In this document: positions 41,340 through 42,574 of the stretch, in pieces | Numbering within the stretch: position 1 is the first letter of the stretch | How the letters are laid out: each line of letters opens with the position of its first letter | From: an uncultured Actinomycetes bacterium | GTDB taxonomy: Bacteria > Actinomycetota > UBA4738 > HRBIN12 | Reading direction: 5' to 3' | DNA: 64,000 bases | NCBI GenBank assembly: GCA_963704725.1 | Contig: OY969934.1 | Span: 1,685,138-1,749,137 of the forward strand | Made by a program: the position numbers and the translations under genes | Notes under the pieces: model-generated | What the model was told of the DNA's origin: nothing | The model's input: the letters and a program-made list of their open reading frames with translations, nothing else | Databases searched by the model: none

Positions 41340-42574
41340 TCCGGGCCTGGTGCTGGACGGCGTCACCGCCGGCTACGCCGTCGCGTCGGTGGTCCGAGCC
41401 GTCGACCTGGTCGTGCGGCCCGGCGAGGTCGTCGGGCTCGTCGGGCCGAACGGGTCGGGCAAGACGACGCTGGTCCGGGCGGCGTCGAGGGCGCTCCGCC
41501 CGACCGCCGGCCGGGTCCGGGTCCGGGGCGTCGACCTGTACGAGCTTTCGGGAAGGGAGGCGGCGCGGCTCGTGGCGGTCGTCCCGCAGGACGATGGCCC
41601 CGGCGTTCTCGTTCACCGCGCTCGAGCTGGTCCTGATGGGTCGGGCCCCCTACCTGTCGCGGTGGGGAGGGGGGCGGCCGCAGGACTGGGCGCGGGCTCG
41701 AGCGGCCATGTCCGCGACGCAGGTCCAGCATCTGGCCGACCGGCCGGCCGAGCAGCTCTCGGGTGGTGAGCGGCGCCGGGTGGTGCTGGCGCAGGCCCTG
41801 GCCCAGGACGCGCCGGTCCTGCTCCTGGACGAGCCGACCACCCACCTCGACGTGCGGCACGTGATCGACCTGCTCGGGATCGTCCGGGGGCTCGCGGCGC
41901 GCGAGGGGACGGCCGTCCTGGCGATCCTGCACGACCTGAACCTCGCGGCGTCGGCCTGCGACCGGATCGCCGTCCTGCACCGGGGGGAGATCGTGGCCGA
42001 GGGTCCGCCGGAAGCCGTCGTCACCCCCGTCCTGCTCCGCGAGGTCTACGGCGTCGAGGCCGACGTCGTGACCGACGACCTCACGGGCCGGCCGAACGTA
42101 CGGATCGGGCCTGCGCCGGTGACCGGCCCCTCGCTGGGCCGGCGCGCGCACGTCATCGGGGGAGCGGGGCGGGGGGCTCCGGTGATGCGCCGGCTCGCCG
42201 AGGCGGGGTACGAGGTGAGCGTGGGGGTCCTGCACGCCTCGGACACCGATGCCGGCGTCGCCGAGCGGCTGAACCTCCTCCGGGTGAGCGTGCCGCCCTT
42301 CTCCGACGTGGACGAGGACGCCGCCGAGGCGTGCCGCGAGCTCCTGCGCTCGGCTGACGTCCTGGTCGTGTGCGACGCCCCCTTCGGACCGGGCAACGTC
42401 GCGAACCTCCGCCTGGCGGTGGAGGCCGCGGCATCGGGGCTCGCCACCCACCTGATCGAGCAGGTTCCGATCGAGGAACGGGACTTCACGGGGGGCGAGG
42501 CCACGGCGCTGTGGTCGGCGCTTCGCCGGATGGCGACGGTGGTGGCGACCTACGAGGAGCTGGCGCTTCGCTGA
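41326..42574 (+). pseudogene. ABC transporter ATP-binding protein (BtuD/FecE-like) with an apparent +1 frameshift and a C-terminal extra domain
   Basis: Walker A GPNGSGKTT and VAVVPQDD are in the frame of ORF 41326..41769; Q-loop region onward (FSFTALELVLMGRAPYL, LSGGERRRV, LLLDEPTTHLD, LAILHD) is in the frame of ORF 40358..42574. The switch lies around 41590-41605 (GACGATGGCCCC). Could be a sequencing error. C-terminal about 148 aa (42128-42571) is an unrecognised fused domain. Confidence 0.6.

Follow-up and report, generated by a model that had tools for sequence, protein, structure and literature searches.

A single-base frameshift divides the BtuD-type ATPase gene of a riboswitch-controlled, putative corrinoid importer between two reading frames in an uncultured actinobacterium

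We analyzed a 64,000-nucleotide stretch of DNA from an uncultured Actinomycetes bacterium (hereafter the window; all positions refer to it), which has a G+C content of 70.6%. On its forward strand, a cobalamin riboswitch leads an operon of genes for a substrate-binding protein, a permease and an ABC ATPase (Table 1), so the transporter is riboswitch-controlled, as a preliminary description of the locus had held. Searches of NCBIfam with the binding protein ranked a haloarchaeal PGF-CTERM-type binding protein first and BtuF next (TIGR04281, 5e-51, and NF002894, 3.4e-29), with both matches under the family cut-off. The permease, 345 amino acids (aa) long when read from GTG 40302, had the haloarchaeal BtuC permease NF007081 as its top NCBIfam match (3.1e-89); the database copy of this protein (P0121) is 334 aa long, starts at 40335 and is 100% identical over 40335-41336 (+). 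The ATPase gene starts at a GTG and shares its first 14 nt with the end of the permease gene. A scan of the operon for promoters and terminators found none. The RF00174 riboswitch upstream, the type II permease of PF01032 and the cluster-A binding protein of PF01497 together are those of a cobalamin importer operon. We infer a Btu-type (type II) corrinoid importer, whose substrate is suggested by two things, the riboswitch and family resemblance.

Table 1. Features of the importer operon and its ATPase gene, in window positions.
Feature	Position	Strand	Evidence or remark
Cobalamin riboswitch aptamer, operon leader	39140-39299	+	Rfam RF00174, 90 bits vs gathering score 31.5, E 6e-21
Substrate-binding protein, BtuF-like, Peripla_BP_2, intact	39340-40299	+	Pfam PF01497, E 1.5e-27
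Permease, FecCD/BtuC type, intact	40302-41339	+	Pfam PF01032, E 2.3e-92
ABC ATPase gene as a whole	41326-42574	+	Last gene of the operon
ATPase, N-terminal sense part (aa 1-89)	41326-41592	+	GTG start, Walker A, Q-loop
Walker A, GPNGSGKT	41443-41466	+	Frame of 41326
Q-loop, VVPQ	41578-41589	+	Frame of 41326
Frameshift site GATGGCCCC, one base supernumerary	41593-41601	+	DNA alignment, column statistics, profile scores
Out-of-frame tail of the N-terminal ORF	41593-41769	+	57-58 missense codons, then TGA 41767-41769
ATPase, C-terminal sense part, +1 frame	41594-42574	+	Stop 42572-42574
PAFSF	41600-41614	+	+1 frame
LSGGE signature	41756-41770	+	+1 frame
Walker B, VLLLDE	41816-41833	+	+1 frame
H-loop, ILHD	41924-41935	+	+1 frame
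ATPase, C-terminal extra domain, Rossmann-like	42107-42571	+	Pfam PF27219 'MJ0874'

Direct translation of the ATPase gene placed its N- and C-terminal motifs in different reading frames, as had been noticed earlier. The frame of 41326 reads MPGSDPG...GPNGSGKT...VAVVPQDD, and the next frame reads MAPAFSFTALELV...LSGGERRR...VLLLDEP...ILHDL... to its stop codon. All motifs of PF00005 are present in canonical order (Walker A, Q-loop, LSGGE, Walker B, H-loop), but a change of frame falls between 41592 and 41597. Because the motifs are split over two frames, the PF00005 assignment holds for the restored gene and not for the product as written.

Three independent lines of evidence agree on this split. 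The Pfam ABC_tran profile matched in two pieces, with profile positions 2-67 in the N-terminal piece (E 1.8e-14) and 80-137 in the C-terminal piece (E 5.5e-12); the pieces are adjoining stretches of a single domain that lie in different frames. When the intact homologues P0001, P0004 and P0006 were used as tblastn queries, their residues 1-92 aligned in frame +1 (41326-41601) and residues 90-416 in frame +2 (41594-42604), so that the two HSPs met at 41594-41601. With P0002, the frame +2 HSP began farther upstream, at 41480. A Viterbi segmentation by codon usage, self-trained on the window and blind to the finding, changed frame on the same strand at 41590/41591, 177 nt ahead of the stop in the upstream frame.

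The Viterbi scan revealed no other convincing frameshift in the 64 kb (~55 genes, ~52 kb coding). A candidate second frameshift at 20386 was rejected as an ordinary overlap of two unrelated genes. Flagged by the frame scan at 20224-20447 (-), this is a ~220-nt overlap between the longest-ORF models of adjacent genes, a membrane protein ending at 20224 and a downstream secreted protein; the true start of the secreted-protein gene is probably internal.

The ATPase ORF is disrupted relative to its orthologues, as in a pseudogene. The 120 nearest database proteins, 69-80% identical to the restored ATPase, are all single ORFs of 392-430 aa, and where their source is named it is uncultured Actinomycetota. 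Operons in Actinomycetota metagenome-assembled genomes (MAGs) have the local gene order and the riboswitch in common with the window, but their ATPase genes are unbroken, at 415-417 aa. In the relative L161 (GCA_054336035.1, contig JBTEPX010000002.1), which is syntenic with the window on both sides of the operon, the ATPase is 417 aa long and its start overlaps the permease stop by the identical 14 nt. Identity to L161 is 70% for the N-terminal part of the ATPase, 82% for the C-terminal part, 74% for the binding protein, 83% for the permease and 74-96% across the neighbouring genes. The riboswitch lies ~2.1 kb 5' of an intact ATPase gene in L001-L004, L083 and L086, and riboswitches of relatives score 88-98 bits, as against 90 here. 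Since conservation in each half of the gene matches that of the neighbours and the riboswitch scores like those of relatives, the lesion is either an artefact or very recent. An apparent disruption in the relative L006 was rejected, as it consists of a run of N with the frame unchanged. At a further related Actinomycetota locus (L008; JALYGK010000080.1, 4001-4789), the ATPase match is limited to residues 3-264, and the C-terminal PF27219 domain is apparently missing.

Among the matches listed, the protein database, genome contigs and metagenome contigs gave no second sequence of this species. Exact look-ups of the binding protein, of a neighbouring response regulator and of the C-terminal piece from ATG 41594 gave no database record. 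The closest relative of the ATPase is 80% identical, and the closest permease beyond the source copy is 86% identical. Scanning genome contigs with the restored protein gave a best match of 72% identity among the matches listed, and a protein-based scan of metagenome contigs gave a best match of 73%. An exact-DNA pattern across the site, with 2-5 free bases allowed, had no match in the metagenome contigs. The protein database matches included no translated fragment of the ATPase, though the permease from the same contig was present; the ATPase gene appears to be annotated as a pseudogene in its record, an annotation that does not indicate the cause.

We then located the extra base. At the site, the 120 nearest homologues read VAVVPQ[DE]-[V83 L31 I3 M3]-x-PAFSF with invariant length; two residues, no more and no fewer, separate Q-[DE] from P-A-F, and in all 120 the first of them is V, L, I or M. 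By this comparison of the residues between PQDD and APAFSF with those of orthologues, the window carries one base too many. As had been anticipated, taking out one base returns a single ORF, whichever base of 41593-41601 is chosen; its length is 415 aa, in place of the ~410 aa first estimated. In a MAFFT DNA alignment with 11 relatives, the sole gap opens at A41594 (CAGGACG-A-TGGCCCCGGCG in the window and CAGGACG-TGGTCCCGGCG in L081). Across the site, the form with the extra base is GACGATGGCCCCGG, and the candidate forms without it are GACGTGGCCCCGG, GACGATGCCCCGG and GACGATGGCCCGG.

Reconstructions were scored with a profile derived from these 120 proteins. Removing A41594 gave 755.8 bits (QDVAPAF), and removing G41593 gave 755.1 bits (QDMAPAF). 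Removal of one G of the GG at 41596-41597 gave 751.8 bits (QDDAPAF), and removal of one C of the CCCC at 41598-41601 gave 750.7 bits (QDDGPAF). By 4-5 bits, conservation favours a position of the insertion beyond the G/C run. The extra base is most probably A41594, which would have turned an ancestral GTG Val codon into G-A-TG; behind this best candidate we would place G41593 and then a G of 41596-41597 or a C of 41598-41601. An origin in GG or CCCC is possible at the cost of those 4-5 bits, as slippage is mechanistically easier in a run. Thus, the single-base indel that the preliminary description had placed within GACGATGGCCCC held in every test run, but its assignment to the G/C run there stood only in part; the change lies inside that stretch and not necessarily in the run.

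Programmed +1 frameshifting of the kind known from prfB (RF2), or other recoding, would give a full-length ATPase, and an SD-like AGGA at 41588-41591, just 5' of the site, loosely resembles the prfB stimulator, which likewise lies shortly upstream of a +1 shift. However, CAG GAC GAT GGC contains no slippery codon, GAC/GAU cannot re-pair in the +1 frame, and neither an in-frame stop nor a rare codon is present at the site, unlike the CUU-UGA-type shifty stop of prfB. The 95 nt downstream folded with z +1.26, and 185 of 200 shuffles folded at least as well. There is no A/T run at the site to support transcriptional slippage. Moreover, the extra base occurs in none of the 120 homologous proteins and in none of the 11 relatives' DNA, so that, unlike in prfB, the shift is not conserved, and the locus offers no autoregulatory logic. 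Lacking a slippery site, a downstream structure and a frameshifted relative, programmed frameshifting is rejected as scarcely credible, in keeping with its earlier ranking as the least likely cause.

The insertion also creates an ATG at 41594, which the AGGA precedes; beyond 41327, the C-terminal frame has no other start codon. The C-terminal 326 aa might be translated from it and reassemble with the N-terminal fragment as a split ATPase, but we consider this highly improbable. The spacing from AGGA to ATG is 2 nt only, 58 residues of the N-terminal fragment would be missense, the two pieces would part within one fold, after the Q-loop and before the helical subdomain, and none of the 120 nearest homologues is split there. 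A real extra base combined with a working ATPase, whether by +1 recoding at CAG-GAC-GAU-GGC or by a two-piece domain from ATG 41594, is improbable to the same degree, and any functional reading of the frameshifted gene is very unlikely.

The locus is very probably best explained by an unprogrammed single-base insertion in an otherwise intact, conserved BtuD-type ATPase gene of 415 aa. No finding speaks against such an insertion; the weaker points concern where the base came from. One nucleotide would have been inserted in 41593-41601, most probably A41594. Translation from GTG 41326 would then yield a 147-aa product, the length encoded by the N-terminal ORF as written, with Walker A and the Q-loop and without the helical subdomain, LSGGE, Walker B and H-loop. 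From established ABC mechanics, such a product would be expected neither to hydrolyse ATP nor to power the permease. No polar effect would follow, because the ATPase gene is the last of the operon.

Two origins of this insertion divide the probability nearly evenly. The extra base may be a sequencing or assembly consensus error, with an intact 415-aa gene in the organism, a reading to which we give just under an even chance. Apart from the extra base, gene, operon and riboswitch are intact, and their conservation matches that of the neighbours. The permease record P0121 lies on a single 3,450,992-bp NCBI/ENA contig in a lineage otherwise represented by MAGs only, so the window probably comes from a (near-)complete genome, likely a long-read assembly, and a leftover indel becomes more plausible beforehand. 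Such assemblies typically err by single-base indels that escape correction, and one indel per 64 kb is within range for them; an origin in the G/C run, at its cost of 4-5 bits, would also fit an error. On the other hand, the ~52 kb of coding sequence holds no other frameshift, so the assembly is not generally indel-ridden, and the best-supported inserted base lies outside a homopolymer. Neither replication slippage nor consensus error in long-read data typically produces a non-homopolymer insertion such as A41594.

The otherwise clean assembly and the non-homopolymer position of the best-fitting site count for a real insertion, very recent or confined to a strain or population, by which the ATPase gene would have become a pseudogene and corrinoid uptake by this system would have been lost. 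We regard this as slightly less than an even bet. Free-living bacteria normally have young pseudogenes with a single lesion, at ~1% of their genes. But the gene shows no second lesion and no raised divergence, and the riboswitch is undecayed, so a real mutation would have to be very recent; moreover, the extra base is found in no independent genome.

Restoring the frame allowed us to compare the ATPase with known families. The restored protein aligned to NF007082 ('corrinoid ABC transporter ATPase') in one stretch, aa 12-364 on profile positions 8-360 (E 3e-97), and with 326.2 bits this was its best family, below the equivalog cut-off of 537. NF007082 and NF007081 represent BtuD and BtuC, respectively, of the BtuFCD system of Halobacterium sp. 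NRC-1, the genetics of which were reportedly described by Woodson, Reynolds and Escalante-Semerena in J Bacteriol in 2005. Like that system, the operon comprises a binding protein, a permease and an ATPase, and as with Halobacterium BtuD the match of the restored ATPase to NF007082 reaches into the C-terminal extension (aa 262-366 align to positions 265-361). In contrast to the Halobacterium proteins, both the ATPase (326 vs 537) and the permease (300 vs 461) score under the equivalog cut-offs, and unlike haloarchaeal BtuFCD the system is bacterial (Actinomycetota), stands under a cobalamin riboswitch and has a frameshifted ATPase gene.

The importer also resembles E. coli BtuCD-F and the FhuC/HmuV/FecE group in being a type II importer with all nucleotide-binding-domain motifs, and the nearest solved chains by sequence were FhuC (7lb8, E 7.8e-45) and HmuV (4g1u). 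However, the E. coli BtuD family NF002981 gives the restored ATPase just 108 bits, and neither E. coli BtuD nor the ATPases of the FhuC/HmuV/FecE group have the ~150-aa PF27219 domain present here. A riboswitch-controlled importer of haloarchaeal BtuFCD flavour is already known as a kind, and a single-base frameshift is routine.

The PF27219 domain, whose name 'MJ0874' comes from precomputed Pfam hits on intact homologues, is conserved in each of the 120 homologues and also in the profile for haloarchaeal BtuD. Sequence searches of the PDB found no relative of the domain. Its AlphaFold model, a confident one (pLDDT 82, pTM 0.81), is a five-stranded Rossmann-like α/β fold, and Foldseek returned generic NAD(P)-Rossmann or SDR matches alone, with TM ~0.5. 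The domain has an invariant loop of GGAGRG type, invariant residues G19-A20-G21, H15, H43, D46, D48 and D90, and an invariant G94/G96-N97 segment, which reads DAPFGPGN in the window. A literature search on MJ0874 and Halobacterium BtuD yielded nothing usable. PF27219 may be a regulatory or ligand-sensing domain.

Overall, the frameshift matters little. Should the extra base prove an error, the practical upshot is a record to be corrected and an organism whose riboswitch-controlled corrinoid importer is normal. Should it prove real, B12 uptake by this system has only just been lost in one strain of an uncultured soil-type actinobacterium, a routine gene loss that bears on B12 auxotrophy or prototrophy calls from this genome. 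Either way, annotation pipelines should take 41326-42574 as a single btuD-type gene.

Elsewhere in the window, a 672-aa ORF at 2692-4707 (+) carries LAGLIDADG_3 (aa 281-352) ahead of Radical_SAM (aa 436-567) and looks like an intein-containing radical SAM protein. A bacterial RNase P RNA of class A lies at 5944-6341 (+; 225 bits), and 8287-12159 (-) encodes a histidine kinase of 1291 aa, which has six or more PAS domains along with a single GAF domain. Two heavy-metal P-type ATPases are encoded in tandem at 22163-24313 and 24316-26724 (+), and both have HMA, E1-E2_ATPase and Hydrolase domains. The gene at 56075-59557 (+) joins a type I restriction R subunit (HSDR_N, SWI2_SNF2/ResIII, T1R_D3-like) to a Schlafen AlbA_2 domain at its C terminus.
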